Positions 12,292-62,821 are shown, counted from the first letter of the stretch. The stretch: DNA of 64,000 nucleotides from a virus (IMGVR_UViG_2816332632_000001:1-64000); one strand, 5' to 3'. Notes: generated from the letters alone by a model not told the origin. Made by a program: numbers and translations.

Positions 12292-12325
12292 TTAGCTGCC
12301 TAATCCGGTAGGCTTAGCTAGCTAA
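12292..12325. promoter_or_regulatory. Paired palindromic operator-like sites between int and xis
   Basis: TTAGCTGCCTAA (12292) and TTAGCTAGCTAA (12314). Confidence 0.75.
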
Positions 12326-12345
12326 TTCCAAACGAAGGAGGATTC

Positions 12346-12534
12346 ATGAGAAACACGCTCGACATCGGCCAGGTCGCATCGAAGCTCGGGCTGGCGGTGC
12401 AGACGCTCTACCGCTGGCGCTCCGAGGGCCACGACATGCCCAAGGGCTTCACCATCGGCAACCGCCTCCGCTGGTACGAAGACGTCGTCGACGCCTGGAT
12501 CGAAGAGCAGTCCGAGAAGGCGGTCGCGGCATGA
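12346..12534 (+). CDS. xis: Excisionase (AlpA/MerR-like HTH)
   Basis: LGLAVQTLYRWR...PKGFTIGNRLRW; divergent from int. Confidence 0.85.
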   Translation: MRNTLDIGQVASKLGLAVQTLYRWRSEGHDMPKGFTIGNRLRWYEDVVDAWIEEQSEKAVAA

Positions 12535-12665
12535 GCGCGTGGACCGACCCCTGCCCATACGGACTTCCGGCTCACGACTTCGAGCCGCTGCGCGAGCTCC
12601 AGAAGTTCTACGTAGGCAACACCATGAAGGTGGCCATCTGCCGGAAGTGCGGGATTGCGCGATGA
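12531..12665 (+). CDS. Small Cys/His zinc-finger-like protein (below track cutoff)
   Basis: MSAWTDPCPYGLPAHDF...ICRKCGIAR; ATGA overlaps at both ends. Confidence 0.55.
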   Translation: MSAWTDPCPYGLPAHDFEPLRELQKFYVGNTMKVAICRKCGIAR

Positions 12666-12994
12666 GCAGCCTCATGGAGCACATCGAGCGCGCGCTCCGG
12701 CCGTCAGAGAAGACGTGGACAATCACCTTCGACGACAGCCCGGCGCTCCGAGACCTCTACGACTGGGTGGATCGCGAGTTACGGGCGGACAGTGACCTCA
12801 TCGAGCAAGATCTGCTTTCGCTCCCCGGGGTGCACCGTGGACTCACTGCGGCCGAGGCGGAGGAAATGGGTCTCATGATCGTGCGACAGCGCCCGCCGCA
12901 CGACCCCACATCGAGCGTGTACCGCGGAATCTGGGCGCATGGTACGCCACTGATCGACCACCACCCGGAATGGGGCGAGGTGCGCGGATGGTGA
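12662..12994 (+). CDS. Hypothetical phage protein
   Basis: ATGA-coupled start MSSLMEH. Confidence 0.6.
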   Translation: MSSLMEHIERALRPSEKTWTITFDDSPALRDLYDWVDRELRADSDLIEQDLLSLPGVHRGLTAAEAEEMGLMIVRQRPPHDPTSSVYRGIWAHGTPLIDHHPEWGEVRGW

Positions 12995-13120
12995 GTCGAA
13001 TCGAGGATGGCCTCGACATTGAGCCAAGTCTCCGATGCCGCGGCTGTGGGGCGGGGATTCGCATGGCGAATCTCGTGTGGGGGGACTGCATCAACCCCTA
13101 CTGCATGGAGGGTGATCCCA

Positions 13121-13417
13121 TTGGGCGCGAGTAGACCGAGCAACAACGATCCTCGCGGCAGCGCCGAGTCCCGACGGCAGCGCAAGATCTTCCTGCTCGC
13201 GACGTTCGGTGACGGCTACACGGCGCCGTGCGCGTTCTGCGGGTTCGAGCTCGACTTCTGGACGATCACCGCCGACCGGTTCCCGATACTCGGGGCGGAC
13301 GGCGGCAGCTACCGTCGCGACAACATTCGGCCGGCGTGCCTCCACTGCAACTCGAGCGAGGGTGCGAAGGAGGGCGCTCGGCGACGGCTCCTGCGAGTAG
13401 GGGTGGTGGCGGCATGA
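13121..13417 (+). CDS. HNH-like endonuclease
   Basis: CAFCG...ADR...GGSYRRDNIRPACLHCN. Confidence 0.75.
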   Translation: MGASRPSNNDPRGSAESRRQRKIFLLATFGDGYTAPCAFCGFELDFWTITADRFPILGADGGSYRRDNIRPACLHCNSSEGAKEGARRRLLRVGVVAA

Positions 13418-27406: not shown

Positions 27407-27496
27407 CCATCCCGGAGAGTTAGCTAGCTATAGCAGGTAAACTGGGAGAATGCTGAACGTCTCCCGAGTGTCTGTCATCCCGAAGGTGGTCGCCCT

Positions 27497-30364: not shown

Positions 30365-30877
30365 TTAAGCAGCTACCGGTCGCGGCGGCCAGAAGGTGCG
30401 CAGCGTCGGCATGTGCTTCCGCTGTTTGAGGTAGACGAGCGAATGCGTGATGGCGTCGTTCGAGTCGTCGTTGTCGGTGCCCTTAGCGTGCAGCCCGAAT
30501 TCCGCCAGGAAATTGAACCGGACACGCTGCCGCTGCGCCTTCGTCTTCGCCTCGGGCGGGTAGCCGGTGAGCAGCGCCTTGTGTGTGCGCATCTGCCAGG
30601 TCACCGCCCGCCACTCGGCATCCGTGAGTGCCATGCAGAGCGCGCCCTCGATATGCACGGGAGTGAGGTCGGCCTGGAAGTTGTTCCGCGCGAGCACGAA
30701 CTTTTCGACCACGAGCTCGTCGTAGACCGGCCGCTCGTGAGTCCACCAGCGCTTGAACCCCGCCACCCCGCCGTGCACCTGGTAGCGCTCGACGAGTTGA
30801 TAGGGCGTGGTCTCGTTGTAGAAGCCGAGCGAGATCCCCGTGTTCTTGCCAGGGTCGATGGAGAGCAGGCGCGTCAC
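30365..30877 (-). CDS. RuvC-like resolvase
   Basis: LSIDPGKNTG, VVEKF, DSNDAITH. Confidence 0.78.
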   Translation of the reverse strand: MTRLLSIDPGKNTGISLGFYNETTPYQLVERYQVHGGVAGFKRWWTHERPVYDELVVEKFVLARNNFQADLTPVHIEGALCMALTDAEWRAVTWQMRTHKALLTGYPPEAKTKAQRQRVRFNFLAEFGLHAKGTDNDDSNDAITHSLVYLKQRKHMPTLRTFWPPRPVAA

Positions 30878-37411: not shown

Positions 37412-37451
37412 TGGTCTTGCTCCCGTCTGCTTGGTGATTTGCTGTCTAAAT

Positions 37452-39400: not shown

Positions 39401-39444
39401 GTGTGTTTCCTCCTCGGATCAGTTTAGCGGACTAATTGGCACAT

Positions 39445-40386
39445 TTAAGCAGCTAAATCGAAGCTGACCTCAATGTCGATGTCGGGGACGGGCGCGACGG
39501 CGGGTGAGATCTCGCCCTTGCCGTCCTGTTCGCAGGCGAAGCAGAGTGCGTGCGACTCGAAGTCAGTCGGCTTGCCGCCGGCCTCGAGGTGACTGAAAAT
39601 GCGCTGCCCGCGGTCGATGAGCCACTCGGCGTAAGCCTGGTCGTAGTCGAACGACATCACGTGGATGTCGTGCACGGCCGTCGGGTCGTCGTATCGCTGG
39701 CCAGCCGGGTTGTCGAACCACCCGGTTCCGTCACGGGCGATGAAGACGAGCGAGGCGCGCTTGCGGCCCGAGCCGTGCATGTAGAGGTTCTGCTGGCCGT
39801 AGTAGCCGGTGACCTTGTAGGCCATCTTCTCCATCTCGGTGGCGTACTCCTTATCGGAGAGCTTCACCCAAGTGCGGCGGCGGCCGAAGGTCGGCTCGAG
39901 ACCCTGCTGGATCTGCATGTAGTCGATGAGAATGCAGATCTTCTTGCGGGTCGAGCCCTTCCAGTCGACAAGCTGGAGCGCGGACAGCAGGAGGTCGATC
40001 GTCCCGCCGACCGGGCCGTAGCCAGCGATGTCGGCGAAGTAGGTGTGGACCTCCGGCTTGGCGTCGGGGTTGAGGCCGATGAGCGCGGCCATCTGCCTGC
40101 GCATCTCTGCGGTCCCGGCTTCGTTGAGGTCGTCGTTGTCGACGAGCTCGTTGACCCTCTGTTCGAGGATCGAGTGGAATGCTGTTCCGAGCACTCGCCC
40201 CATCCAGGCGCGGTCCGTGATCGGAGTGGACCGGTCGTCGCCTAGGAAGTTGAAAGCGAGGCAGCGGTCGCAACCGTTCGACAGGTTCGACGCGCCGATC
40301 CTGACCTGCTTGTCGCGGCTGGTGGGCGCCTTGAGGAGGCTGATCGCCAGGTGGCGGATCTCCTCGTCCGTGTAGATGTCGGTCAC
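39445..40386 (-). CDS. Cas4-like/RecB exonuclease
   Basis: IGAS...CDRC, GTAFH, GTIDL...DWK, QQNLY, CFAC. Confidence 0.85.
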   Translation of the reverse strand: MTDIYTDEEIRHLAISLLKAPTSRDKQVRIGASNLSNGCDRCLAFNFLGDDRSTPITDRAWMGRVLGTAFHSILEQRVNELVDNDDLNEAGTAEMRRQMAALIGLNPDAKPEVHTYFADIAGYGPVGGTIDLLLSALQLVDWKGSTRKKICILIDYMQIQQGLEPTFGRRRTWVKLSDKEYATEMEKMAYKVTGYYGQQNLYMHGSGRKRASLVFIARDGTGWFDNPAGQRYDDPTAVHDIHVMSFDYDQAYAEWLIDRGQRIFSHLEAGGKPTDFESHALCFACEQDGKGEISPAVAPVPDIDIEVSFDLAA

Positions 40387-40544
40387 GACGTCTCTCCCTT
40401 CATGTCGATGGTGGAACCGGTCAGCGGTGCGGGGCGCGGCCCGCTGACCGGTCTTCTTTTCTGGTGCCTTGACTTGTTCACGATCTCTCCCTCCTGGTTG
40501 GTACAAGAAGATTTAATCGCAAATTAGCCACCTAAGTCAAGGGA

Positions 40545-40889
40545 TTAGCTAGCTAATCTTCCAATTTCTTTGTCCGCCATTTGGAGGACACGAAGTTCTC
40601 CCAGGTCAAGCGGGATTTCTTCGAGTATGGGCTTGCCGTCGTCGTAGCCGATCCCGCCCCACACGCCCCAGCCGGGCTTGCTCACCTCTCCGTACTCGCG
40701 GCATAGCTGCCGAATTGGGCATGATGCGCACATCTCCTCAGCCACGGCGGGCTCTGGCGCGACCTCATAGTTCGCGAAGTCCTCTCCCCTCCCGTAGCAG
40801 TTTCTTTTGTGGTCCCAGTCGTTGCGCTTCGCCTCCCGGAGGAGGGCGAAGAACTCGCGACGAACGACGCGCACTCCACGCTTCGGCAC
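40545..40889 (-). CDS. WhiB-family transcription factor
   Basis: C...CASCPIRQLC...GVWGG. Confidence 0.85.
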   Translation of the reverse strand: MPKRGVRVVRREFFALLREAKRNDWDHKRNCYGRGEDFANYEVAPEPAVAEEMCASCPIRQLCREYGEVSKPGWGVWGGIGYDDGKPILEEIPLDLGELRVLQMADKEIGRLAS

Positions 40890-44477: not shown

Positions 44478-45778
44478 GCGGCCACCAGGCTTCCCTCGGC
44501 CTCGAGGTCGACGGCGTCCTGGTCGAGCATCTTGGTTTCGTGCTGGAGGAAGATCGGCGACTTGGCCTTGAGCAGGAACGGTGCCCACCCATCGGCGCGA
44601 ACGACCACGCCCTCGTCGACAAACCGCTTGGGCAGCGGGACGACGTCGAGGATTGGGTACTTCGCCTCGCCGAGAGTCTGGCCGTTGATGCTGAGGTTCT
44701 TGTCGATCCAGTAGTCCACATCGAACTCAGCGTGCCGCCCACTCCACAACTCGGGCACGTACTTGAGCCCGCGCTCCGTGGCGAACGCCTTCACCTGCGG
44801 CCACGAGAGGTCGACGAGCATCCCGCCGTTGGTGACCACGGCGACGCGGTAGATGTAGAGCTCTGCCGCGCCCTGCGGCAGGTCGTATGTGTAGTCCTTT
44901 TGGATGGGCGCGCCATCCGGGGTCCAGCCGATGAGTTCGCCGTAGACGACGAAATTCTCCGGGATCATGTCGTCGAGGGTGCGGCCGAAGTCGGTCCAGA
45001 TGTCGGAGCCGTAGAAGTGGTTCTGGTTCGGGTTGTTCGGGTCTTTGATGACCTTGCGCGAGCCGTACACGTGGTCGTACTCGGTCTCGCGGACGGTCAC
45101 GCCGAGCTTCTTGGCCAGGCGCTCCAGGAAGGAGAGCTTGCGCTTCACGAGCGTATTGGCGATGCGGATGCTGGTGCCGTGGAGCTTCTGCGTGACGACG
45201 ATCTGCTCGTCCGGCGCGATCTTGAACTCGTTGCGCCAGTAGTTCTCGGTGTCGTAGTGCTCCGGCAGGAACTTCTCGTCGACGCGCTTGAAGACCTTCT
45301 CGTGCTTGGCGGTGCGCTCGCGCGGCTCGGCCGGCTGCTTCACGAGGTACTTGCGGCAGATCTCGTGGTCGCCGATCTTGTCGAACGTGTCGCCGACCTC
45401 GAAGTCGCGAAGATCCTCCGGGTGGTTGAGCAGGTAGTCGAGCGAGGTGAGCGGCATGAAGAGCGCGTCGGAGCGGTGGCCGCGGAACTTCATCGCCTTC
45501 ACTCGGCGGTTGTCCTCCAGGTAGCCCTTCACGCGGTCGTCGACGTTCTTCTCGGCGTGGCGGTACAGCCCATTGAATGCGGCGTACTCGTCGGAGAGTT
45601 GCGTCTCGGCCGGGAAGAACAGGCCGATGTCGCCGACCTTGACATCCTTCGACACGATGGCCTGGAGTCCGAACAGCGGGACGCCGACCACGTTGTCGCA
45701 GTTAGCTAGCTGATTGATGGCGTTCACCCTCACGACGACGGCCGCGTAGTTCGGGTTGACGGGTGCTTCGAGTTTCAA
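44474..45778 (-). CDS. ATP-dependent RNA ligase with N-terminal OB domain
   Basis: Motif I TQKLHGTS, YGELIG, YVP, EGVVVR, LKAK. Confidence 0.85.
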   Translation of the reverse strand: MKLEAPVNPNYAAVVVRVNAINQLANCDNVVGVPLFGLQAIVSKDVKVGDIGLFFPAETQLSDEYAAFNGLYRHAEKNVDDRVKGYLEDNRRVKAMKFRGHRSDALFMPLTSLDYLLNHPEDLRDFEVGDTFDKIGDHEICRKYLVKQPAEPRERTAKHEKVFKRVDEKFLPEHYDTENYWRNEFKIAPDEQIVVTQKLHGTSIRIANTLVKRKLSFLERLAKKLGVTVRETEYDHVYGSRKVIKDPNNPNQNHFYGSDIWTDFGRTLDDMIPENFVVYGELIGWTPDGAPIQKDYTYDLPQGAAELYIYRVAVVTNGGMLVDLSWPQVKAFATERGLKYVPELWSGRHAEFDVDYWIDKNLSINGQTLGEAKYPILDVVPLPKRFVDEGVVVRADGWAPFLLKAKSPIFLQHETKMLDQDAVDLEAEGSLVAA

Positions 45779-46822: not shown

Positions 46823-46865
46823 ATCTGAATCCTCCAATTCGTGATTAGCTAGCTAAACCCTAGCA

Positions 46866-48461
46866 TTAAGCAGCTAATCGTAGGGTGTTTTTGTTGGAAA
46901 ATGCCCGAAGTTTGTTCGAGCGGTACACGCCCACGTCCTTCGTTTCGCGGGCTTGGATCTTCACCTGCTGGAATCCGCCGTTGGCTTCGGTGCGTCCGGG
47001 GCGGAACAGACGGCGGACGAACTGCTCGTTGACCGCCTCGTCCCCGTCCATTTCGTTCAGCCAGGCGAGCTTGTTGCAGACCTTCTGGAAGCCGTCGAGA
47101 CCAGTGCTCATGGATGGAATGGTTGTGACGATGTACTGGAGCTCCCCGGCCAGGAAGCGCGCCTTGATCTGATCTCGCTGCTTTGAAGAGATGTCGCCCG
47201 TCCACTCCGCCACCGATTCGCCGGCCCTGGTCATGCGCTCGACGACCACCTTGGCGAACCTCTTCGAGTCCATGCCGATGATGGCGGGCTGGTCGCCCCA
47301 GAAGCGGAGGATGCCCTGGAGGGCGCGCAGTTTTGTGCTGACGCACTCCGTGTCGAAGTAGACCTCCCCCTCGTCGGTGACGGAGAGTTCGCCGAGCGCC
47401 GCCGTGCGGAGCCGCTGGCGCAAATTTGCTGGGATCTCGACCGCGAGTGGATTGTCCTCGATCCAGACGATGAGGTCGCGCTCCAGCGACTCGTACTGGT
47501 GGCGCTGCTCCGGCGACAGGTCGACGTACACGGGCAGCGCATCCGGGATCGGCTCGGCCTCGGCGCGGAAGTAGAGCGGGAGGGTCTTCACGAACTCGCC
47601 GGGGTACTTCTCCCCCACCACGCGCTGCACAGGGTTGTCGAAGTGATCGAGGAGCGGCTGACCGTCCTTGTAGACCGTCTCCGTGGTGCACCAGTCGTCC
47701 TGCCATCGCACGTAGTTCGGGTCGATGAGGTCCGGCCAGAGCCAACGGGTGACAGCCCAGATGCCGGGGAACTTGTTGCCCTGCGGGGTGCCGGACATGC
47801 CGAGCTTGTACTCGGAAGCGATGGTCTGGATGGTCTTGAAGCCGGCCGACTTGCGGTTCTGGATGAGGTGGACCTCGTCGAAGATGAGGAGGTCCACCGG
47901 TGGCATTTTGGCGTACGTCTTGAGTTGGACGGAGCGGCGCTCACGGATCGGCACGAGAGCCGGGCCGATGACGGTAGCACCGTTGCCGGGCACGCGCTTC
48001 GCCGGATGCTCCTCCTTCCACAGCGCGCGCTCACTCTCGTTCATCGGCACGAGCACGAGCTCGTCAGAGCCGGTGACGGTCTTGAACTTGGGGCGCCTAG
48101 TCCGGCTCTCGAACGCGAGCTTGCTAACCCAGTCCTGCTTGACGAGGTACTGAGCGCCGACGAAGAAGTGCCCCGGCGCCCCGGCGAGGAGGTCTTGCAT
48201 CGCCTTCTTGCCAGGGGCGCTGGAGTCGATGCGGCGGAGCACGACCGCACCGTCTGTCTGCGCGAGCATGAGGTCCGCGAACTGCCCGTACGTGTCCTTG
48301 ATGCCGACGGTCAGGGTGCGCTCGAACTGCACGGCCGACTCGACGGCGACCAGGGTTTTGCCATAGCCAGGCTCGTCGGCCACGAGCGCCGCCTTGGTCG
48401 GCTCGGCGCGCAGGCTCTTGATCCTGAGCGCCTGCGCTTCGCGGGGCGTCTGCTTCTGCAC
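46866..48461 (-). CDS. SNF2-like helicase
   Basis: ADEPGYGKT, DEVH, SGTP, TGLDG, Q...RLFRPG. Confidence 0.88.
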   Translation of the reverse strand: MQKQTPREAQALRIKSLRAEPTKAALVADEPGYGKTLVAVESAVQFERTLTVGIKDTYGQFADLMLAQTDGAVVLRRIDSSAPGKKAMQDLLAGAPGHFFVGAQYLVKQDWVSKLAFESRTRRPKFKTVTGSDELVLVPMNESERALWKEEHPAKRVPGNGATVIGPALVPIRERRSVQLKTYAKMPPVDLLIFDEVHLIQNRKSAGFKTIQTIASEYKLGMSGTPQGNKFPGIWAVTRWLWPDLIDPNYVRWQDDWCTTETVYKDGQPLLDHFDNPVQRVVGEKYPGEFVKTLPLYFRAEAEPIPDALPVYVDLSPEQRHQYESLERDLIVWIEDNPLAVEIPANLRQRLRTAALGELSVTDEGEVYFDTECVSTKLRALQGILRFWGDQPAIIGMDSKRFAKVVVERMTRAGESVAEWTGDISSKQRDQIKARFLAGELQYIVTTIPSMSTGLDGFQKVCNKLAWLNEMDGDEAVNEQFVRRLFRPGRTEANGGFQQVKIQARETKDVGVYRSNKLRAFSNKNTLRLAA

Positions 48462-48467: not shown

Positions 48468-51400
48468 TCCTTCGGGTGGTGGTGGGTTAGTTCATTCCGG
48501 GGCACCCGCAGTGCGGGCAGGTCTGACACTGGAAGTCGCCGGTGCCCGAGAAAGCGTCCTCCCAGATCTGTGCCCACTCCTCCTCGGTGAGGTGGTCGGG
48601 CTTGTCGGCGCTCACTCGCTCTCCGCTTCGAGTTCGGCTAGGGCCGCACGGCCCTTCTCTGTCAGGCCGCCTGTGTAGAGCTTGATGAGTCCGTGATCGT
48701 GCCTCTCGAACCAGACCAGTCCGCGACGGGCGAATGCAGCGAGCGTGCGCCCGTCGACGCCGTTGAACTCGTTCTGGCCACTGTCATCGAACACTTGCAG
48801 TGCGATGCGATTCGCTCGGGTGTACGCGTCGACGAGCTTGCTCATGCCGCGTTCATCTCCTCGATTGGGTCCGGGAAGAAGTTGAACGAGCGGTAGAGGT
48901 AGCCCGCACCCTCCTGGAGCTTGTTCAGGTGCACAGCCAGCTTGCTCATCGAGCCGTAGCTCCCCACCTTCCCCTCGATGGCGTTCGACAGCGAGTCGGG
49001 AAGGTCCGCCATCTCCGGGTCCGGGTCCACGTTCACGAACTGGATGCCCCCTTCGTCGTCCGCGAGGAGCACGTCGCCGCCGATGGTGGTGGTGCGCGCG
49101 CTCTGGTTCTGAGTCCAGGCGAGGCGGTAGAGCTTGTCATCCGGCTTCGCGTCGGCTGGCCACTGAGTTAGGTCGACGACAGGGGTGCCCGGTTCGATGC
49201 CGAGTTCTCTCAGCGTGCGGGTGTCCTTGTCGAACTCGTTGTATCTGATCTTGGTGTCGCTCATGCTTGCTCGACTCCTTCCTGCCGCAGCGCGGCGATT
49301 GCTTCGGTGATGAGGGTGAGTACGTCGTCGTCGTACTTGTGCTCGAAGTCCGCCTTGCCGCGTTCCCAGCGGCGCGGGTCCATGTGTTTAGGGGCGACCC
49401 CATAGAGCACCACCTGATACGTGTGCGGGTCGCCTGGATGGTCACCGCCTGCGGAGCGAGAGATCTTGAGGTGGCGGCGGGCCATCCCCTGGCCGATGTC
49501 GATGGCTACCTGGACGCTCACGCATTCACCGCCTTGAGCTCAGCGCGAGCGTGGCTCGTCGCATCCTGGGTGCGGTTTGAGTAGGTGCGGAAGGCGTCGA
49601 GGAACCCCGGCGTGCCTTCCCAGAACTCCTCGATAGGCTTGGCCTGGTCGGTGAAGACCTCGATGACCTGTTCGCCCCACGCGCCGGTGCGCACGGTGGC
49701 GTCATAGCCGAGGGCGCTCATGGCGTCGTTGAAGTTGTCGAGCTCCGCGTCGATCTGCTCGATGCTCGGGCCGGCGAGGGTGTCGGTGATGGTGATGCTC
49801 ATGCTGTCCTTCTTTCGATTTAGGTAGTTACTTGCGCCGGAAGATTTGGTTGCGGTGACGGCGGAACCGGGCGCCCTTCGCGGTGACAACGATGAACCAG
49901 TCGCGCTCGTCCGTGTCGAACACCAGGGCGTCTTTCGCCTGTCCGGGGATGTGCGCTTTGCCGACGCACGCGCCGAGTGTGGCGGTGCTCACGTGTCGCA
50001 CTCGCACGGATGCACAATGAAGCAGCCCTGGCAGACCGTCTCGGCGGCGCTGCGGCGTTCGACTCGCGCGACGCATCCGGCGTGCGCCCACCGCGCCTCG
50101 TCGTCCTGAAGGAGGCTCTGGCCTCGCTCGATGGGGTACGGGCAGAGCGGGCACGCACTGTCGAATTGCGCGAGCATCAGAGCAGCGCCGCCATGCGCTC
50201 GCGGGCGGTGCCGACGCTGTCGAAGACGCTCGGCACAATGGTGGCCCCAGTGAAGTTCAGGTGGTCGAAGGAGTTGCGGGACGGCAGGTGCGCCTCGCCG
50301 GGCTCCCACAGCACGACGGGGCCGGCGGGGTGCATAACCACGCGCCTTACCACGCGCATGTGCCCGTCGACGAGAACGGTGACGCCGGGTGTGAGGTCGA
50401 GAATGTCCATGATGCCTAGTCCTCCGAGTCGTATCGTTCGGTGAGCGCGTCCGCAATCGCGGCGGAAGAGAAGTCTTCGAGCTCCGGGTTTTGGTTGGCG
50501 TATCTGGCCAATGTGTTCTCCTTAGTGCGAAATGGTCGAGATTGTGATTCCAATAGCGAGGAATCCGATGATCCAGCCAGCGGTTGCGGCGTGGACGAGT
50601 CCTTTTGGCGGGGAATGCTTCGCGCTCAGGTCAGGGCCGCCAGCTTGGTCAGGACGCGACGGGCGTGGTCACGCTCGGCAATGGTGAACTCCGAGCCGAT
50701 CAGACGCACATCGTTGAGCATGTAGCGCAGGATTTCCGTGTGGGTCCCGCAGTTGGGGTCACCCCACAGCGCCCGTAGCCACACCAGGATCGGGTTGTGG
50801 TTGTCGAACTCGGGGCGGGGTGCGTAGTCAGCCAGGCCGAACCGACCCACCTCCGGAAACATGAGGGCAACCGTTTCGCTGAATCGAGCCCCTGTGGACA
50901 GGAGCCACGGCTCCGGGTCGTGCGTCGTCTTGCCGCTCGTGAAGCCGCTGGTGCTCATGACCAGTTCTCCGTCCAGCCTTCGGGCAGGCGCACGGGCTTG
51001 TCGCATCGGTCGTGCGTGAAGTACTTCGTCTCGAAGTCGCCGCGGTCGTCGTTCGAGAGGTCGATCTGTTCGAGCGAGTAGTCCGTGGACTCGCGCACGT
51101 AGCTCCACCGCTCCGCGTGCTCCACCGCGTGCAGCCCTCCGCCCGGCATGAGCGCAACGCCGCACCACGGGCAGAGCAGCCCGTCGATTGGGGCGCCATC
51201 CTCGTCCCTGTCGACGATTGTGACGGTGAGTGCCGGCCAGGCGTAGGCGTCGTACTGCGCCTTCACCGCGGCGAGCCGTTCGATGATGGCGTCTGCCGCC
51301 TCTCGTTCTTGGGTGTTCATGCCGTCTTCTCCTTCTCTGCCCGTCGGGCTGCCTGCCATGCTTCGTTTCGCTCCTGCTCCGCCTTGCACTCGGCGTACGA

Positions 51401-54400
51401 CTTCCAGCCGGGGATGCTCTCGCCGTCGTACCACCGCTGCTCCTTCTCCCAGTGCCGCACGTACCATCCGCTATCCAGGTTCGCTTCCGCTTCCCGCTTT
51501 GTTTCGTACGTCGGCCCCATCTGCGTGCCCTGTTTGTCGACTACGCACCAGCGTGCGCGCGTGCCGTACGGGATGCGCTCAACCGTCCAGGTTTCGGGCG
51601 GGTTTGCGGCGTGCTGCTCGGGTGAGGTGTAGAGGCTCATGCGCTCATCGCCTCCCGGATGCGCTCCGTAACCTCGACGGTGGTGCCCAGCGCGGCGGGC
51701 GTGTTGCCCCAGCGCTGAATGCTGCCGTCGCGGGCGATGGCGAACTCGAACACTTGGCCCTCGTCGGTCGTACCCCAGCCTCGGAGCTCGATCAGGCTGG
51801 CGTCCCGGATGGTGTCCGTGCTCATGCGATGCCCTCCCAGTCGGTCAACTCGTCCGCGAACGCGGAGCGCACCAGGCCGTCAGCGAACCGCATTTCGAAC
51901 ATCGGGCCGACCTCCTCGTCAACGCCATCATCGGGGCCGAGTTCGCGCAGCACGGTCACGCGCTCGCCGCTGTGCTCGTTGAGCTCCGGCTCACACGTGC
52001 TCTCGTCCGTGGTGTAGCGCGTGAACGTGGCGACAGCGGGTGTCTGGATGGTGCTCACGCTGCGTTCTCCTTCGGGATGTGGCGTTCAGCCTCGACCGTG
52101 TCGAGCATCCGGGCTAGTTCGGCGGTGGGGATGGTCACGTTGCGCTTGTCGGCTGCCAGGGCTGCCGCGACAGTCTCCGTGACCGTTGCGGCTGGCTTGC
52201 GGCGCTTCACTGCGCGGGGCGTCTCGTAGGCGATGCGGGCCACCTGCGCAATGAGCGCTTCGACCTGCTCACGGCTCACGATCGCCTCACCGTTTTCATC
52301 CCACTGCATGAGGTCTGCAAGCTCCGTGGGGAGCGCTTCGAGCTTCGCGGGAATGGTGGGCGCGTCCGGCTCGGATACCGGGGCGATGTGTTCGCCCACA
52401 CGGGCCAGCAGGCGCGCCATGTCGGCGGTCGGGACGCTCACTGTCGCCGCGCCCTTGATCTGCGCTGCGGCGAGCTTGCCAGGGAGCACGTAGCGGGAAA
52501 CGTGCGTGCGCATGAACTCGTCGATGCGGGCGGCGGCGCTCACGCTTTGACCTCCCCGCACCCGTGCTCCGCGGCGGTATCCCAGAGAGCCGCGAGGGTG
52601 TCGTCATGTTCGACATCGCACACTCGCTCTCGGCAGTCGGGGTCCGGGCAGTACAGCGCGAGACTGTCGCTTTCGCCGCTCCAGCGGATTTCGTACCGCC
52701 CTGCAAATTCGTTGCTCACGCGGCGACCTCCTGCGGGGTGTTCTCGGCGAGCCAGGCGAGCGCTTCACGCTCATTCGCCCACAGCCATTCCGCGACCGGG
52801 TTTCGCACCCAAGTCGTGCCGAACAGTGTCGGCTCCGTCGGGATCAGCGTGTCCGAACCGTTGGCGTGCGTCCCCAGCTTGAATGTGGCCGCGTTGGGGG
52901 CGATGCCGTCGGCGTCGTCATACCCGATTGTGAGCTTGATCTGCGCGAGCTCCTCATCCGTGAGCGTGACCACGAGCAGCCCGGCCGCGTCAACGCTGTA
53001 CCGGTTCGCCAGCGGGTCCGTGTGCAGTTCGGCGGGGGTGAACGCTTCGCCCGCCGTGCGGCGCAGCGACTCGTACACCGTGTTCGGGTTCGTCGTGCCG
53101 AGCCCCTGGATGCCGATCTGACGTTTCGGGATGCCGAGCGCGAACGCTTTGCGGACCTCGACGTCCATGTCCCGGGTCAGGCCGGCGATCCGTGCATCCA
53201 ACTCCATTCTGAGCCGGGCGAGGCCGTTCGCCTTCTCGCTGAGCACCCTCTCACGGGTCATGCGGACGTTCGAGAGGGCCATCTTCTGTGTGGCGTCCAA
53301 CTGCATTGAAACTCCATTCTCGGGGGTTTTGCTTGGATTAAGCGTATCGGATGTATCGGAATTTAGCTAGCTAATTTGTACGTATTAGTCAGCAATACGA
53401 ACGCTACATCGGGGAAATACGGTGGCTGCTGAAATGTGACTAGCCAGTAAACGCCTAGGAATCAGCGTTCTTGCGAGATCGCTCTCACTTCACTCTTAAC
53501 ACTTGACCGTATTTAGTTCTTGTAACTACATACGGGGAATACTGGGGGTGTGGGGTATCAGGCTTTGAGGATGAACCAGTACAGCCACATTGCAGCGCCG
53601 GCGGCAACCGGGATGGTTGTCCCGATCAGGGTGTAGGCGGCGAGTCGTGCAAGCTGCTGGATGCGTCGAGCGCGGATGCGCTGGCGGCGAGTCTTCAAAC
53701 CAAGCTCGCGGTACAGCTTGCCCTCAGTCATGCTCGCGGCAGGGTTGAACGTGCGCGCGTAGTGCTGGCGTTCCGACTCTGTGAGGGCTCGTGAATGGTC
53801 CGGAGCCATCACAATCAGGGCGGCGGTGGTGCTCACTTTCCGCCGCCCGTCCGACGCGCAATGATGGCGGTCTGTAGCGCCCACTGCGCAGTGTTCAGAG
53901 TGTTGAACGCCTCACGGGACGTAAACCCAATGAAACCGTGGTCGGTCAGGAATGCGGGGTGAGCCATTCCGGGGGTGTTCGGGTGAATCACGAACAGTCG
54001 CCACGGCTGATAGGCATCCTTGATGAGGGTGAACGTGGAGCCGACCGGCTCAACGCCGAGCTCCACAGCATTCTTGATCGCCAGGCCGGCCATGTGCTCG
54101 ATCTGTGCGCGGGTGTAGTGAGTCAACGGGGGCCACCTTTCTTAGCTTTGCGGCGCCGCTTCATGGCGGCATTGTGGAGTCGTGCACGGTGTTCGGAACG
54201 CTTGCGGGACTCGTATTCGTACCGGTCGCGCTGGCGGGCAAGCTCGTATTCGTCGGGATTCACTTGACCCTCACCCCTGCTCGGATGATGCCGCTAGTGG
54301 CGCGCGTCCGGATTGCGGGCCGACAGTCGATGAGGTACTTACCCTGCTTGACGGGGCGGAGGTCACTGTGCGGGGTGGACACATGCACGCGCTCCCAGAG

Positions 54401-56484: not shown

Positions 56485-56573
56485 AGAACCATCCTACCAA
56501 ATTAGCTAGTTAAAGTGTAGCGATTAGATAGCTAAATGTACGGTTTTATTACCCCACAATGGGTGACATGAAA

Positions 56574-56607
56574 CGAGCTCGAGCGCGCCGGCATGATGGC
56601 AAGCTCG
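56574..56607. other. Candidate cos site (CGCCGGCAT at 56586-56594)
   Basis: Non-coding divergence point; flanked by inverted CGAGCT/AGCTCG. Confidence 0.4.
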
Positions 56608-56755
56608 GGTGCCGGCCGGGGGCATGAGCTCATAGTGTGCCGGGAAACATCCCATATTTTGGTGGCGAATGGGGGTGTTTGCGGGTGCGGCCAGTGCCGT
56701 GAAAATTTTTCGCGATCCGGGCCAAACCTGAATATCCCACCACTACCCTGATGTC

Positions 56756-56941
56756 ATGTCCGACGATCCTCTCCTCAATCCCGTGTGCACCGTGCGGGAT
56801 CTCCAGGCCGCCCTTGCCAGCGTGCCACCTGACACCGAGATTCGAGCGTTCGCAGGCATGGACTCGTCGGTCATCGTCAGCTTTCGGGACGGTCGAGACT
56901 GGCGCGACCTTGCATACTTCCGGCCCGACGGCGACGACTAG
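56756..56941 (+). CDS. Small acidic hypothetical protein
   Basis: TVRDLQAALASVPPDTEI. Confidence 0.55.
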   Translation: MSDDPLLNPVCTVRDLQAALASVPPDTEIRAFAGMDSSVIVSFRDGRDWRDLAYFRPDGDD

Positions 56942-56989
56942 CCCGCCCCGAAAGTGGCCCCCGAATCGCGGCTACGCTTGATATGCACC

Positions 56990-57061
56990 CACCGCTTAGT
57001 TCAATGGCAGACACACCGGCGCGCAAGCCGGAGACGGAGCGTTCGATTCGCGCCAGCGGCA
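56990..57061 (+). pseudogene. Degenerate tRNA-like element
   Basis: TAGTTCAATGGCAG D region, CCGGC-GCGCAA-GCCGG (6-nt loop), GTTCGATTC; about 5-bp acceptor. Confidence 0.55.
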
Positions 57062-57069
57062 GGTGACCT

Positions 57070-57142
57070 TGCCCCGTAGCGCAACTGGTAGAGCGCCTGA
57101 TTCTGGATCAGGAGGTTGTTGGTTCGAATCCAGCCGGGGCAG
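57070..57142 (+). tRNA. tRNA-Gln(CTG)
   Basis: TGCCCCG/CGGGGCA, CCTGA-TTCTGGA-TCAGG, GGTTCGAATCC. Confidence 0.88.
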
Positions 57143-57153
57143 CGCAACACCGA

Positions 57154-57226
57154 TGGCCCGTAGCTCAGTTGGTAGAGCATCCGCCTGTTAAGCGGACGGT
57201 CGCAGGATCGAGACCTGCCGGGCCAG
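57154..57226 (+). tRNA. tRNA-Asn(GTT)
   Basis: TGGCCCG/CGGGCCA, TCCGC-CTGTTAA-GCGGA, atypical T loop ATCGAGA. Confidence 0.88.
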
Positions 57227-57228
57227 CC

Positions 57229-57450
57229 TCACTGCCCTTCGGCGAGCCGCTGCTCCGCCTGACGCACAGCCAGGTTGCGTGCCGCCTCAGCTTCGATGCG
57301 CTGCGCCTGGATCTGGGCGGCCAGTGCGGCGCGAGCATCGCGCTTCTTCTTCGACTCGAGCGGGATGCCGAGCATTGCGGCGCCGAACACCACCAGGAAG
57401 AAGCCGACGACGAGCACGATGCCAACCACGATGGCGATACCCAGAATCAT
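57229..57450 (-). CDS. Small single-TM protein
   Basis: N-terminal hydrophobic run followed by a helix. Confidence 0.55.
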   Translation of the reverse strand: MILGIAIVVGIVLVVGFFLVVFGAAMLGIPLESKKKRDARAALAAQIQAQRIEAEAARNLAVRQAEQRLAEGQ

Positions 57451-57483
57451 GCTCCAACCGTAGCCGACAGCGCCGACAGGGCT

Positions 57484-57639
57484 CTACTCCCCCGAATCCG
57501 GGGCATCCTCGAGCTCGTTGCGGCCGGCGGCCGCTTGCTCCTTCGACCGCGCCAGCAGTTCAACGTCGATCCGCTCCCAGTCCAGTGGCTTCGGGTAGTC
57601 GCCCTTGAAGCCGTCTGCATTCTCTCGTCCAGTAGGCAT
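57484..57639 (-). CDS. 51-aa acidic protein under an SOS box (candidate antirepressor; not in track)
   Basis: MPTGRENADGFKGDYPKPLDWERIDVELLARSKEQAAAGRNELEDAPDSGE. Confidence 0.6.
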   Translation of the reverse strand: MPTGRENADGFKGDYPKPLDWERIDVELLARSKEQAAAGRNELEDAPDSGE

Positions 57640-57658: not shown

Positions 57659-57790
57659 TTTGCTTCATTTTCAAGCTGGAAAATGTACGGTTATTAGCTA
57701 GCTAATCGGTGGGATTAGCCCACTAATTGCGATAGTGTTGGTGTTGTTCGGGCGTGGAAGCCCAGCAAACACAACGAATTGGAGGATTCA

Positions 57791-58982: not shown

Positions 58983-59023
58983 CGCGCATTAAGCAGCTAA
59001 TCCACCAACCACAAGGAGGCCCC

Positions 59024-59434
59024 ATGAAACTCAGAACCAAGATCGCCACCGCAGTCCTCGCGGCCACCGCCGCCGGATGGGCACTCACCGGCGCGGCGTG
59101 CGCCAGCGACGCCGACACCGCAAGCCAGAACATCGCCACCGCCGCCGAGCAGTTCGAGGTGCAGCGCACCATCGTCGGCATCAACGGCATCACCGGGAAG
59201 ACGACCTTCTTCGCTGAGGGACGATGCTCGTTCGAGAACTCGGGTCGGCGCTTCGACGTGACCTGCAAGTACGGCCCGAACGAATACCGCAAGCACGTGT
59301 TCATCATGGGCGACCAGGACTCGGTCTCGGTGACCCAGGAGCACGCGATCGACGTCAGCGTCTACCACACGCGCGTCGTCCTCAAGCCCGAAAGCCTCCT
59401 GCCCGAGTTCGACCTCCAGGTTGGCAAGCAGTGA
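59024..59434 (+). CDS. Conserved phage lipoprotein
   Basis: Signal peptide ending at Cys; SQNIATAAEQFEVQR...NGIT...EGRCS. Confidence 0.75.
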   Translation: MKLRTKIATAVLAATAAGWALTGAACASDADTASQNIATAAEQFEVQRTIVGINGITGKTTFFAEGRCSFENSGRRFDVTCKYGPNEYRKHVFIMGDQDSVSVTQEHAIDVSVYHTRVVLKPESLLPEFDLQVGKQ

Positions 59435-60034
59435 CGACAGCAGCGCAGGCCGCGCAAATCCTCGCCCTCCCCCTCGACCCCGAGGAGAACGACGCCGAAG
59501 CTTCGACTGTCGGAGAGTACCTCGGCGCAATCCTCAAGGCCCTTCTGGTTGAGCAGGAATGCTTCAGCGGGAAGCGCCCGCTCGGCAACTCCGGCTGGGA
59601 GGGGCCGCTCGAGGACGCACTCGACGGGGCTGGCTACGAGTGGTCAGCCCTGCACGCGGCCGCCGTGCTCGGGCTGGGTGGCGAGCGATGAGCGCCACCC
59701 GCCAGGTCGAGCGCCGCGGCGTCGGCTTCCTCACCCTCCTCACCCTGCTGTTCATCGCCCTCAAGCTGCTCGGCGTCATCGCCTGGTCGTGGCTCTGGGT
59801 GCTCTCGCCGCTGTGGATTCCGAGTGTCCTCGTTCTGGTGGCCGCGGTCATTATCCTCGTCGTCTACGTGCTGGTCGGCAAGAAGCGGGGGCGTCGATGA
59901 TCGCGCCCCTGGCCGCCTTCGTTGGCGGGATAGTCGTCGGCGTCATCGTCACCGGCGGCGCCTGGTACGGGTGGTTCATCAGCACCTTCGGCCCGGCAGA
60001 CGAACAGGACATCGACCGGAAGGAGCAGGCATGA
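59431..60034 (+). other. Three small coupled genes (59431-59691, 59688-59900 membrane, 59897-60034 membrane)
   Basis: 4-bp overlaps; FSGKRPLGNSGW; LKLLGVIAWSWLWVLSPLWI. Confidence 0.6.
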
Positions 60035-60507
60035 GCAACGAGCAGGAAATCCTCGACGAGCACCACAACGCCATCGTCAACGGGGCGCTCGACGAGGTGC
60101 AGAACCAGATCGACAAGTGGGGCGTCCAGCACCACCCGGACGGCACCGGCTCCGAGTCGGACAAGAGACTCGCAGATGTCGCGAAAGCGCTCACCGACAA
60201 CGCCGCCAAGCACGGCGGCCTCACCTGGAAGCTGATCCTGGATGAGGAGGTCAAGGAGGCGTTCGCCGAGTCGAACGCGGTCAGTCTCCGCGCCGAACTC
60301 GAACAGGTGGCCGCCGTAGCGATCTCGTGGATTCGCGACCTCGACAACCGCCCGAAGGAGGGTGCTCCTCGGGAGCCGCACTACCGCACCTACGGGCGCG
60401 CGGGCGGAGTCAGTGAGGTCTACATCGCCGCAGACGGGACCGCGAACCTCACCGAGGAACTCCTGCACGATCTCATGATCCGTGCTGGCTTCGAGGAACT
60501 CGCGTGA
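60031..60507 (+). CDS. MazG-like NTP pyrophosphohydrolase
   Basis: QIDKWG, ILDEEVKEA, RAELEQVAAVA. Confidence 0.72.
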   Translation: MSNEQEILDEHHNAIVNGALDEVQNQIDKWGVQHHPDGTGSESDKRLADVAKALTDNAAKHGGLTWKLILDEEVKEAFAESNAVSLRAELEQVAAVAISWIRDLDNRPKEGAPREPHYRTYGRAGGVSEVYIAADGTANLTEELLHDLMIRAGFEELA

Positions 60508-60619
60508 TCCACGCAGCCGCCGCACCCACCGGCGAGGAGGTCGGGACGTGCATCGTCCTCCTCCTCGCCCTGGTGGCGCTCGTCTTCCTCAACAACCGAC
60601 CGAAAGGACCGCGACCAGC

Positions 60620-60784
60620 ATGACGAAGACCATCATCAGACTCGACGCCAAGAGCCGCCTCTCCGTCGGCCGCTACACCGAACTCGAGCCCGGCTCGTAC
60701 TTCCGCATCGAGAAGGCCGAAGGCGGCACGCTTACCCTCACGCCGGTCCCGGTCGAGGCCCCTGAAACCGAGGTGGCTGCATGA
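60620..60784 (+). CDS. AbrB/SpoVT-like small DNA-binding protein
   Basis: IRLDAKSRLSV...GTLTLTPV. Confidence 0.6.
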   Translation: MTKTIIRLDAKSRLSVGRYTELEPGSYFRIEKAEGGTLTLTPVPVEAPETEVAA

Positions 60785-61625
60785 GCCAGACGAAACGCGT
60801 CGGCCTCCGGCGCATTCTCCCGACGGTCATCAACTCGCACATGTTCCGCGCAGAGCTCAATCGGGCGATCGACGAGCTTGAGCAGCACGAGGCCAAGACG
60901 GGCGAGCAGATCATCTGGGCGACGATCGACCTTGAAATCGAAGAGGACCAGATCGACGACCGCACGTTCGCCGGCATGGATGCCGAGGTGTCCGTGCTGC
61001 GCTCCCTGCGATTCGGGGCGTACGCCACCGTCCCCGGAGGTGAGGATGAGTAACCGCGCCGCGCTCATCGCGCTCATCCTCGCGTACTGGACGTGCCGCG
61101 CCCTGGCGGCCGCCAGCATCTTCGGCACGCTGACATTCCTGGCCGTCTACGTAGCGACCGGCCAGCCGCAGTTTGGCTACGCGGCGGTGGTCTGCATCGG
61201 TTCGATGGTCGGCTTCGTCATTGCGGGTGCCGTCGCGCAGAATTGGGCTCGCGCATGACGATCACGACCGGAGACTACGTGACCATCGGCCGCAACAAGC
61301 TCACGTGGCGCGTCATTCGGATCGTCGACGGCGTGGCCCAACTCGCCTCCGGCAACTCCAGCCGCCACCGCTTCGAGCACGTGGTCCGTCTCCGACTCTT
61401 CGGCGTGGGAGGCGAGAAATGACCGCCAACATGCGCTACGGCTCCGCGGACATGCTCATCGCCCAGGCCGGAATCGACCCGAACACAGTTTCGACACTCG
61501 GCGTGACCGCACAAGGGTACTGGGAGCCGCAGGGGCGGCGCGGAGACGCCGAGTGCTTCGTATGGCGCTCATGGCCAAGCCAGCAGATCGGTTCCGAGAT
61601 CTACCAGGCGCTCAACCCACGGTGA
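60781..61625 (+). other. Small coupled hypothetical genes
   Basis: 60781-61053, 61046-61258 (membrane), 61255-61422, 61419-61625. Confidence 0.55.
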
Positions 61626-61736
61626 GGGACGACGACTATCCCGAACTTGGCTCCGGCGAGGTCGAATTTACCGAGGGCCGCACCATCATCCACTTCGGGA
61701 GCCCCGCTGGCTCCCAATTCACAGACAGGAGTAACA

Positions 61737-62651
61737 ATGAGCACTCAAAAAGGACTGGTCTACGTCGCTGGGCCCATGACGGGCTATCCGGGATTCAACT
61801 TCCCGGCCTTCGACGCGGCCACGAAGGCGCTGCGCGAGGATGGGTGGTGGCCGATCAACCCCGCCGACCACGACCGGGCGATGGGGTTCACCGGTGAGGG
61901 GATGACCGGCGCCGAGGATCTCCAGGAGCGCGGCTTCAACCTCGCGGAGGCTCTCCTCTGGGATCTCCAGAAGGTTGCCGAGGCGAACGCCATTTACCTT
62001 CTCGAGGGGTGGCGGGAGTCGAAGGGCGCACGCGCCGAGCACGCTCTGGCAGTTGCTCTCGGCAAGGAGATCATCGAACAGCCCGGAAAGCGCCTCCTTG
62101 GCTTCGGCGGTCGGCTCGCGAGCGGGAAGGATGCTCTTGCGGACCACCTCGTGGAGACCGCCGGCTACGTCAAGATCGGCATGAGCGACGCGCTCAACCA
62201 CGCACTACTAACCCTCGACCCGATCATCGACCAGGACGGCCAGTGGGTGCAGCGATACTCGGATGTCATCGAGGAACGCGGCTACGTCGACGCCAAGAAG
62301 CACCCCGAGGTTCGCCGACTCCTCCAGGTGCTCGGCACTGAGGTCGGTCGCGAGATGATCGACGTCGACGTATGGGTCAAGATCAGCGAGCGAATGATCC
62401 GCTCGCTGCTCGCCAACGGCAAGAAGGTCATCATCACCGGCGTCCGGTATCCCAATGAGGTCGATCTCATCGAGCGCCTCGGCGGAAGAACAGTGTGGGT
62501 GGAGCGCCCTAGCGACAGCGCCAGCAAATCCATCCACATCTCCGAATCGTCCGTCCTCCCCCGAGACTTCCAGCACGTCGTCGATAATGACGGGACGCTC
62601 GAGGATCTCTACCGCAAGGGGGATCGGCTGGTCGAGGGGGTGAACCAGTGA
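61737..62651 (+). CDS. DUF4406 (deoxyribosyltransferase-like) fused to a dNMP kinase
   Basis: VYVAGPMTG...NPA...WRESKGARAE; then GRLASGKD...RRLLQVLGTE...VRYPNE...HISE. Confidence 0.82.
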   Translation: MSTQKGLVYVAGPMTGYPGFNFPAFDAATKALREDGWWPINPADHDRAMGFTGEGMTGAEDLQERGFNLAEALLWDLQKVAEANAIYLLEGWRESKGARAEHALAVALGKEIIEQPGKRLLGFGGRLASGKDALADHLVETAGYVKIGMSDALNHALLTLDPIIDQDGQWVQRYSDVIEERGYVDAKKHPEVRRLLQVLGTEVGREMIDVDVWVKISERMIRSLLANGKKVIITGVRYPNEVDLIERLGGRTVWVERPSDSASKSIHISESSVLPRDFQHVVDNDGTLEDLYRKGDRLVEGVNQ

Positions 62652-62821
62652 GCCCGCAGCAAGTTTCCGAGTTTGCGCCCGCAACTAAGGCGCTCCTCGA
62701 CGGCGAGATCCTGGTGACGATCCTGCGCCCGGTCTCCGGCAACATCCTCGTCGACGTCGGCCACGGGACACTTCTCGTCCCCAGGGAGCGGCTCACGTTG
62801 CTCGCTTAGCTAACTAACGCG

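Follow-up and report, generated by a model that had tools for sequence, protein, structure and literature searches.

Dispersed 12-bp palindromes at gene boundaries and promoters of an uncultured temperate phage lineage: predicted operators of a phage-encoded global repressor

The stretch of DNA analysed here, IMGVR_UViG_2816332632_000001:1-64000 (the window), corresponds to bases 1-64,000 of a provirus record of 75,199 bp. Positions 1-10525 are flanking non-phage DNA, and what follows is a temperate phage of an uncultured lineage in integrated form; this prophage begins at a point between 10526 and 11074, just ahead of a tyrosine integrase gene and an excisionase-like helix-turn-helix (HTH) gene. 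Tail genes and a holin gene follow up to 30.3 kb, then a minus-strand early block at 30.4-57.6 kb (primase-polymerase, SNF2 helicase, exonuclease, WhiB-like, NAD-salvage and RNA-repair genes), and finally plus-strand genes from 57779 that lead to the gene of a DndB-like (DGQHR) protein and on to terminase, portal, protease and capsid genes. Scattered over this phage, mostly in the gaps between genes and next to -10 hexamers, are copies and variants of a 12-bp perfect palindrome, TTAGCTAGCTAA (Table 1), which we predict to be operators of a single regulatory protein.

Five exact copies of TTAGCTAGCTAA are present in the window (starts at 12314, 40545, 46845, 53363 and 57694), the number expected from dinucleotide-preserving shuffles being 0.00. 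The excess persists when the match is relaxed, with 15 words within two mismatches (0.27 expected) and 31 within three (3.85 expected, a count of 31 being reached by 0 of 100 shuffles), and 17 words keep the exact TTAG....CTAA arms as compared with 0.6 in shuffles. The palindrome is also the commonest 10-mer motif of the whole record, and its excess is the more striking because TTAG, CTAA and CTAG are each under-represented across that record. An earlier reading of the window, made from its sequence only, had listed 25 such positions, and all of them carry the kind of sequence described: 15 are within two mismatches of TTAGCTAGCTAA, two (39424 and 57715) combine exact arms with a different centre, six fall under a second variant, TTAAGCAGCTAA or TTAAGCCACTAA, and the weak ones at 37438 and 49820, with three mismatches each, may be chance matches. 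The second variant TTAAGCAGCTAA occupies 30365 (where it ends in ...CTAC), 39445, 46866 and 58989, and its relative TTAGTGGCTTAA is found at 55082 and 56029. Two further sites, absent from that list, lie past the window end, at 67119 and 71438 of the record. The six close pairs it reported are present as well, with start-to-start spacings of 22, 21, 21, 21, 22 and 21 bp, and so is the motif-free first 11 kb, where no word within two mismatches occurs and three-mismatch words are confined to 3905, 10225 and 10514, near the chance level; the motif is absent there because that stretch is flank. A full-text literature search with the 12-mer returned only unrelated papers, and scanning viral contigs with the 14-mer ATTAGCTAGCTAAT gave 36 contigs with a single copy in each and no network.

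The motif is specific to the phage. Four Microbacteriaceae genomes (4.0, 4.1, 3.7 and 2.3 Mb), reached through related loci and used as stand-ins for the true host, contain 0, 0, 9 and 0 copies within one mismatch, and all nine copies of the 3.7-Mb genome lie on one 70-kb contig that is a related prophage; the reversed word, taken as a control, is found 6, 6, 3 and 7 times in the same genomes. An equal frequency in the host chromosome had been named beforehand as the outcome that would speak against a phage network, and the count obtained, 0 copies outside the prophage contig in the four stand-ins, favours the network instead.

Placement was evaluated on a set of 27 sites, defined by exact arms, by at most two mismatches to the palindrome or by belonging to the second variant. 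Eighteen of them are intergenic, in a prophage whose intergenic share is 12.2%, and five others overlap a stop codon, so that 23 of the 27 lie between genes or on a stop codon; three (19868, 45702 and 67119) are truly intragenic, and one falls at the end of the flanking SMC-like gene. Read towards the downstream gene, 14 of 32 site-directions have a TANNNT hexamer whose first base falls between -4 and +10 relative to the site end; for random positions the figure is 1.5%. Three layouts are displayed. In the first, seen at 27420, 29945, 40524 and on either side of the divergent region at 57.7 kb, the hexamer follows the site after 6-7 nt; in the second (13852, 16825 and 39424), a TAAACT begins with the final TAA of the site; and in the third (12292/12314, 46866/46845 and 56524/56502), the hexamer is enclosed by paired sites, the downstream one of which lies over the start point. 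The offset between site and hexamer is variable, ranging from a 3-nt overlap to separations of 3 to 8 nt, and the statement that some sites start 18-19 bp before a -10 box is true for 27420, 29945, 57694 (minus direction) and 57715. Most site-linked promoters consist of a -10 hexamer with no -35 box, and several hexamers are found 5-8 nt ahead of a start codon, which suggests that the genes downstream of them are leaderless; leaderless transcripts are common in actinobacteria. The sites at 45702, 62806 and 67119 have no promoter-like neighbour.

Table 1. Positions, in window numbering, of the sites and of the genes and promoter elements discussed
Feature	Position	Strand	Context or basis
TrwC relaxase with helicase domains	2619-6398		flank
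ABC-3C CTD6 protein	7067-8179		flank
SMC-like/DUF3732 ATPase	8651-10525		flank
Tyrosine integrase	11074..12261	-	family scan
Site pair TTAGCTGCCTAA + exact TTAGCTAGCTAA, 22 bp apart	12292..12325		between divergent integrase and excisionase-like genes; TAGGCT hexamer between sites; exact site ends 20 nt before ATG at 12346
Excisionase-like HTH_17 gene	starts 12346	+	follows integrase
Site TTAGCCAGCTAA	13852..13863	+	on HNH-gene stop codon; its TAA opens TAAACT hexamer, 6 nt before ATG at 13873
Site TTAGTTAGCTAA	16825..16836	+	directly after hairpin 3' of tail-tube gene; overlaps TAAACT; GTG start at 16845
Site TTAGCTAGCTAT	27420..27431	+	6 nt upstream of TAAACTGGGA
Site TTAGCCAGCTAA	29945..29956	+	7 nt upstream of TAGACT; before small Cys-rich open reading frame (ORF) and holin gene
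Weak variant TTAAGCAGCTAC	30365..30376		on stop codon of gene 30365-30979
Tandem helix-turn-helix protein, 126 aa	34500..34877	-	follows primase-polymerase gene; candidate reader
Weak site TTTGCTGTCTAA, 3 mismatches	37438..37449		upstream of primase-polymerase gene
Pair TTAGCGGACTAA + TTAAGCAGCTAA, 21 bp apart	39424..39456	-	gap between two minus-strand genes; proximal site overlaps TAAACT
Pair TTAGCCACCTAA + exact site, 21 bp apart	40524..40556	-	flanks TTGACT-18-TTAAAT promoter of exonuclease gene; exact site contains stop codon of WhiB-like ORF
Intragenic site TTAGCTAGCTGA	45702..45713		within RNA-ligase gene
Pair exact site + TTAAGCAGCTAA, 21 bp apart	46845..46877	-	upstream of kinase-phosphatase gene; TAGGGT between sites
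Weak match TTAGGTAGTTAC, 3 mismatches	49820..49831		mismatch scan
Exact site	53363..53374	-	57 nt upstream of 196-aa gene 52716-53306
Variant TTAGTGGCTTAA	55082..55093	-	between minus-strand genes
Variant TTAGTGGCTTAA	56029..56040	-	upstream of sliding-clamp-like gene
Pair TTAGCTAGTTAA + TTAGATAGCTAA, 22 bp apart	56502..56535	-	TACACT between sites; TAGGAT 6 nt before ATG at 56484
Contig-covered stretch	56604..57491	+	61-aa acidic ORF 56756-56941; tRNA-Gln and tRNA-Asn 57070-57228; 73-aa gene on opposite strand
Pair exact site + TTAGCCCACTAA, 21 bp apart	57694..57726		divergent region, leftward early versus rightward genes; each site 6 nt upstream of TANNNT (TACATT leftward, TAGTGT rightward)
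Variant TTAAGCAGCTAA	58989..59000	+	intergenic gap
Site TTAGCTAACTAA	62806..62817		on stop codon; then hairpin and T run
Acidic 70-aa gene	62865..63077	-	BLAST, 9 of 13 records; iterated profile search, 13 of 13
Extended -10 box TGgTATAGT	63245..63253	+	upstream of DndB-like gene
DndB-like (DGQHR) protein, 464 aa	63290..64000 in window, gene to 64684 of record	+	Pfam, NCBIfam

Some features around these promoters deserve mention in their own right. Late genes share a block made of the -10 hexamer and the sequence downstream of it, TAAACTGGGA in this group and TAGACTCCGC in others, which is found at 27437-27450 and 24215-24232 of the window and also in the relatives G005, G014, G003, G012 and G013; as it stands 5-8 nt before the start codon, it appears to define a family of leaderless late promoters. 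An ORF of ~31 codons with a CxxxxxxxxCxxC pattern lies at 29978-30073 (+), between a lysin-like gene and the holin gene, with TAGACT upstream. The gene at 30365-30979, whose stop codon carries a weak variant, has a PHROG family of unknown function as its sole match, and an IDPG stretch in its product is, in our own reading, reminiscent of RuvC-type resolvases.

Related genomes were reached through the SNF2 helicase, which found no relative as a single-protein query and did so as an alignment query, and through the DndB-like protein. Twelve related virus records were fetched whole and, together with the present one (G000), make up the 13 records compared here, to all of which six families are common (protease, portal, large terminase, a 169-aa protein, the DndB-like protein and a 196-aa protein). 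Exact TTAGCTAGCTAA is present five times in G000, three times in G003 and once in G004, and not at all in the other ten records. Nonetheless, 10 of the 12 relatives display a dispersed variant of their own. Seven of these ten (G001, G002, G005, G006, G007, G008 and G014) keep the TTAG and CTAA arms, the centre differing among them and the length being 11 or 12 bp, and three (G003, G004 and G013) do not; centres among the relatives include CTAG, TCGA, TCCA and GCGC. The dispersed words are TTAGTCGACTAA and TTAGTCGGCTAA in G001 and G014, the latter additionally having TTAGTCCACTAA and showing 18 words with exact arms; TTAGTCCACTAA in G005 and G002; TTAGTGCGCTAA in G007; the 11-bp forms TTAGCCACTAA in G006 and TTAGTCACTAA in G008; and TAGCTAGCTAA, TATCTAGATAA and TTAGCGCGCAAA in G003, G004 and G013, respectively. 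No dispersed word is evident in G010 and G012, and G009, covered by a pattern scan only, repeats the word of G005.

The variants recur at shared junctions, namely between integrase and excisionase genes, after the WhiB-like gene (also in G001, G003, G004 and G014), after the hairpin that separates tail tube and tail chaperone (the 16825 junction, which carries the own-genome variant in G001, G003, G004, G005 and G014) and upstream of the DndB-like gene. Such a pattern is the one expected if the sites co-evolve with a genome-specific reader, and, since the site variants differ, whichever protein reads them must have changed too. Pairing at 21-22 bp is largely peculiar to the present genome.

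The lineage is mosaic, as illustrated by G005 and G002 (L121-L124, L133-L134), which share a site variant and have DndB-like proteins of 66% identity, their portal proteins being only 35% identical. This mosaicism, together with the position of the sites at gene boundaries, would also be compatible with the sites having no regulatory role and being module-boundary recombination sequences, while the GCTAGC and CTAG contained in the palindrome, and the C5 methylase gene present in the element, might point to restriction or methylation targets; short transcript hairpins are a third possibility of this kind. Constant arms around a changing centre are at odds with a restriction or methylation target, a perfect palindrome of 12 nt has no bases to spare for a hairpin loop, and neither pairing at 21-22 bp nor tracking of -10 hexamers is expected of boundary sequences. 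Thus, a role outside regulation is highly improbable.

The sites are, in our view, probably operators of one phage-encoded global repressor. From the features above we infer that a single phage protein would bind the 12-bp palindrome, with the TTAG/CTAA arms essentially fixed and the centre looser, wherever a copy overlaps a -10 element or immediately precedes one; this would apply to the integrase/excisionase region, to the early promoters in both directions (leftward and rightward) and to many small promoters of the late operon. Once bound, it would exclude or halt RNA polymerase, leaving the whole prophage silent, and cooperative binding would be expected at paired sites, which are two helical turns apart. 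Repression is favoured over activation because the offset is variable, some sites lie over start points, integrase/excisionase, early and late regions bear sites alike, and some sites are stoperator-like in having no promoter; in particular, a variable offset from site to hexamer fits a repressor better than an activator of fixed geometry.

Several observations weigh against a global repressor. The asymmetric variants of the relatives are mostly co-oriented with transcription (6:1, 4:0, 3:0, 4:0, 4:1 and 6:2) and might just as well denote a promoter element; the site spans about -33 to -22 in many late promoters of the relatives; and sites are found on late promoters also here, the late promoters of most temperate phages needing activation, not repression. 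No classical repressor of the HTH_3 or Peptidase_S24 families was recognised among the ORFs scanned, and L5 gp71 gave 0 matches at E up to 10 against the six frames of the whole 75-kb record. Moreover, the host-frequency count rests on related genomes instead of the true host, and the RNA evidence presented below consists of assembled contigs from 44001-64000 only, which give neither levels nor true ends.

Part of these observations would be accommodated by positive control, with a phage activator docking at the site and letting host RNA polymerase use promoters devoid of a -35 box. Most site-linked promoters are of this type, the site in many late promoters of the relatives stands where a -35 contact would be, and co-orientation of the asymmetric variants would fit as well. 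The activator could be the tandem HTH protein, acting alone or with the conserved WhiB-like protein, whose gene is present in 10 of the 13 records; the tandem HTH protein is encoded in the early replication operon, and a lysogeny repressor gene would be oddly placed in such a lytic operon. On the contrary, the -10 hexamer is found at differing offsets (-3 or 3 to 8 nt), the three pairs that enclose a hexamer have their downstream site covering the start point, integrase/excisionase, early and late promoters all bear sites, which leaves no temporal logic, and the sites at 45702, 62806 and 67119 are without any promoter. Activation is therefore considered rather improbable.

Regarding the protein that would read the sites as a repressor, two conserved candidates stand out. 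The DndB-like protein matches PF14072 (1.4e-26 over residues 26-355), TIGR03187 (60.2 bits versus a cut-off of 58.85) and the DndB model of PADLOC (4.6e-09), which assigns it to the DndB/DGQHR branch of the ParB/Srx superfamily. It is encoded in 13 of 13 related records, next to the terminase genes in all of them, and has no match in 50,697 GenBank phage records. DndB has been published as a DNA-binding autoregulator whose target is palindromic DNA of its own promoter and whose effect is repression of transcription (PMC4507180), a role that has been questioned by others (PMC10853773). Genes of the dndC, D and E families are not found among the 80 + 56 + 16 ORFs scanned. The region upstream of the DndB-like gene, 63078-63289, contains no 12-mer site, and in G001, G002, G005 and G014 a one-mismatch copy of the own site is located on or just after the corresponding promoter. 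The acidic 70-aa gene is divergent from the DndB-like gene in the six of six records checked for orientation, an arrangement reminiscent of a two-gene switch.

Contigs identical to the window, from two RNA libraries of one study, were mapped over 44001-64000. They cover ~2.2 kb of these 20 kb, with ~1.9 kb in 56191-56448, 56604-57491 and 63261-64000 and ~0.4 kb in two low-depth pieces at 52218-52656, and the contig-free parts are not to be taken as evidence of silence. The contig that begins at 63261, 7 nt after TGgTATAGT, runs 1225 nt and comprises most of the DndB-like gene. RNA from this gene, together with its promoter pattern, gives the look of an autoregulated regulator expressed in the lysogen; a prophage gene expressed for another purpose would look alike. 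In the second of the covered stretches, the tRNA-Gln and tRNA-Asn genes and the 61-aa ORF run opposite to the early genes.

The second candidate is the tandem HTH protein, which an HTH call at 34497 had already put forward and which is indeed conserved, being encoded in 12 of 13 records with the missing record a fragment. Its profile matches a designed helix-turn-helix repeat protein, and its model (predicted local distance difference test score, pLDDT, 90.5) shows eight helices arranged as two four-helix repeats. Its sequence groups part the seven records with TTAG...CTAA arms from the rest. Its gene abuts the primase-polymerase gene in a lytic operon, which counts against it as a lysogeny repressor, and hhalign of its profile with L5 gp71 returned a probability of 3.6%. 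Foldseek searches with the models of both candidates gave no match at E up to 0.001, and the alignment of the DndB-like family, run as a profile against the PDB, had 0 hits at E up to 1. Comparison of protein identity with site class fits both candidates and decides nothing; for the DndB-like protein, G006 and G008, which have the 11-bp form, are mutual best matches (58%), and G005 and G002 stand close despite the distance between their portals. As the binder of the sites, the DndB-like protein is a possible but tentative choice and the tandem HTH protein a still more tentative one, while the chance that something else plays this role comes near to even.

The most far-reaching version of the proposal is that a ParB-superfamily protein of the DGQHR/DndB type, expressed in the lysogen by an extended -10 promoter that has no operator, silences a whole lineage of Microbacteriaceae temperate phages through 11-/12-bp TTAG...CTAA sites in nearly every promoter, the small divergent gene being the other half of the switch. 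Taken as a whole it is unlikely, and, if true, it would amount to a new class of phage immunity repressor and to a second, independent ParB-superfamily global silencer of a mobile element beside KorB. A DndB-like reader would also provide a function for a widespread and poorly understood branch of the ParB superfamily, along with a new type of immunity repressor; an ordinary small HTH protein as reader would make the system a tidy new example of a known logic.

The sequence-only reading had taken the network for a global silencing system and had thought of a ParB-like clamp as its effector. Its first part is retained, a network read by one phage protein being the most likely explanation for sites that are phage-specific, promoter-placed and conserved at junctions; the clamp fares less well. 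In such a scheme, drawn by analogy with KorB, the sites would load the DndB-like protein for DNA compaction, packaging or long-range silencing by spreading or sliding. The adjacency of its gene to the terminase genes in 13 of 13 records and its membership of the ParB/Srx superfamily are in line with this, as is the resemblance of the TTAG/CTAA arms to the core of the RK2 KorB operator, and of the 11-bp spacing in G006 and G008 to the spacing of that operator. KorB itself is described as a sliding clamp that depends on CTP and can exert silencing from afar (PMC11790492). On the contrary, Pfam at E up to 0.1 gives DndB only and no ParB domain, and neither a KorB-type HTH nor a ParB DNA-binding domain was recognised in the protein. 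The model of its N-terminal part is nearer to NTPase domains of the SspE/BrxU type (Z of 6.1-6.7 for SspE and 6.0 for BrxU) than to the ParB CTPase (Z of 4.5-4.9 over ~93 residues for CTP/CDP-bound domains), and its C-terminal helical half (214-428) has no clear structural match, a model this large having been barely tested in parts. Furthermore, the sites are on the promoters themselves, so that no action at a distance is needed. A role in DNA architecture is thus very unlikely, and the DndB-like protein as a sliding clamp is speculative and less likely than the same protein as a silencer.

Other proteins were considered as readers and set aside. Two DNA-binding candidates proposed before, an HTH protein at 41706 and an 'AbrB' at 60620, lost ground, the former having no relative among 79 related sources and the latter a relative in just one of the 79 and no AbrB fold in Pfam, PHROGs or NCBIfam. 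The gene at 52716, also proposed, is conserved and belongs to no recognisable DNA-binding family. Its 196-aa product (52716-53306), considered as an autoregulated binder, is encoded in 13 of 13 records, of which G000 and G001 alone have the full site upstream of the gene, G002 having part of it; its PDB profile search gave nothing meaningful, and its best Atlas score was 0.85, to unnamed clusters. A 169-aa ORF at 10542-11051 (-), between flank and integrase gene, has two HTH units (HTH_38/HTH_23 and sigma-70 region-4) and is rejected as a conserved reader because it has no homologue in the 12 relatives. The excisionase-like HTH protein has no relative among the 79 sources, an HTH_17 gene of the same kind adjoining the integrase gene in G005 as its positional equivalent. 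The WhiB-like protein is without a basic tail or any other DNA-reading part, and the proteins that flank the 57.7-kb divergent region are acidic and match no family.

The organisation of the element agrees with its being a true integrated prophage. In G005, a complete relative with direct terminal repeats, the same integrase/excisionase cassette is located inside the late operon (L122:10790-12058), between a phosphatase gene and the head-tail genes. The attachment site is thus within the structural operon, between head and tail genes, which explains why the provirus has its head genes at one end and its tail genes at the other. Fragments resembling a tRNA 3' end (T arm plus acceptor stem) are observed at 37450-37490 (-) of the window and at L120:12990-13045 (+), ARAGORN calling no gene at either, and the latter, near the right end of its record, may mark the attachment site. 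The flank, whose genes have a third-position G+C below that of the phage part and no homologue in five relatives compared, resembles part of an integrative mobilisable element or a defence island. A megablast comparison of 20 kb with GenBank phages returned only an 82-bp match. Within the early block, an auxiliary run at 41912-46837 (-) contains NAMPT/NAPRTase-like, PRPP-synthetase-like, RNA ligase and polynucleotide kinase-phosphatase genes, which suggests NAD salvage and RNA repair, possibly serving counter-defence. Finally, a 112-aa protein at 58168-58506 (+) matches the Acb2/Tad1 hairpin domain (8.2e-07) and may act as a sponge for cyclic-nucleotide defence signals.

In phages P1 (C1) and phiC31 (c), one repressor acts on many scattered operators at temperate-phage promoters, and the likeness to the present case lies in the scattered promoter operators, the protein families and site sequences being different. 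The control logic proposed here would hence be an already known one, seen in those phages and in the stoperators of cluster A mycobacteriophages (PMC9283540). What is new is the series of variants across the family, the embedding of the sites in promoters, the hint from RNA and the short list of candidate readers, and dispersed-operator control, familiar from a few phage groups, would be extended to an uncultured lineage. The series is unusually clear, with the same arms, different centres, lengths of 11 or 12 bp and forms that are palindromic in some genomes and oriented in others, and it offers a ready-made specificity experiment; moreover, the sites are written into promoters that have a -10 element only and are often leaderless.

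Immunity of cluster A mycobacteriophages, as outlined in the published account, relies on a repressor of the L5 gp71 type with an operator and stoperators (PMC9283540). As there, the genome of a temperate actinobacterial phage contains ~25 copies of a short site, located in early and late regions and mostly in the small gaps between genes, and relatives carry diverged variants, the asymmetric ones co-oriented with transcription. On the contrary, the cluster A site is asymmetric and oriented, and the main site of the present phage is perfectly palindromic and frequently one of a pair spaced 21-22 bp; the sites are mostly on or next to -10 hexamers and not inside transcription units; and the record encodes no L5 gp71 homologue. 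In contrast to lambda CI/Cro control, in which an HTH_3 repressor, often with an S24 peptidase domain, is divergent from a cro-like gene and has operators in between, no HTH_3/S24 repressor is found among the ORFs scanned.

The operator of KorB from RK2 is TTTAGC(G/C)GCTAAA, one central base shorter than the palindrome described here. As in the global KorB/KorA regulation of RK2, where the reader is a ParB-superfamily protein, copies of a palindrome with arms of the TTAG and CTAA kind are distributed around a mobile element, which here encodes a ParB-superfamily protein of the DndB type. The two differ in that four central bases are found here instead of the three of that operator, the DGQHR/DndB-type protein is without a recognised ParB CTPase or KorB DNA-binding domain, the sites are promoter-proximal, and no KorA-like partner was identified. 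With the DndB regulators the phage protein shares its DGQHR/DndB domain, and it differs from them in the lack of dndCDE among the ORFs scanned and in its putative target, since the DndB site given in the published descriptions is TACG-N10-CGTA, at two places in one promoter (PMC4507180, PMC10853773), whereas the site of this phage is 12 bp long and distributed genome-wide.

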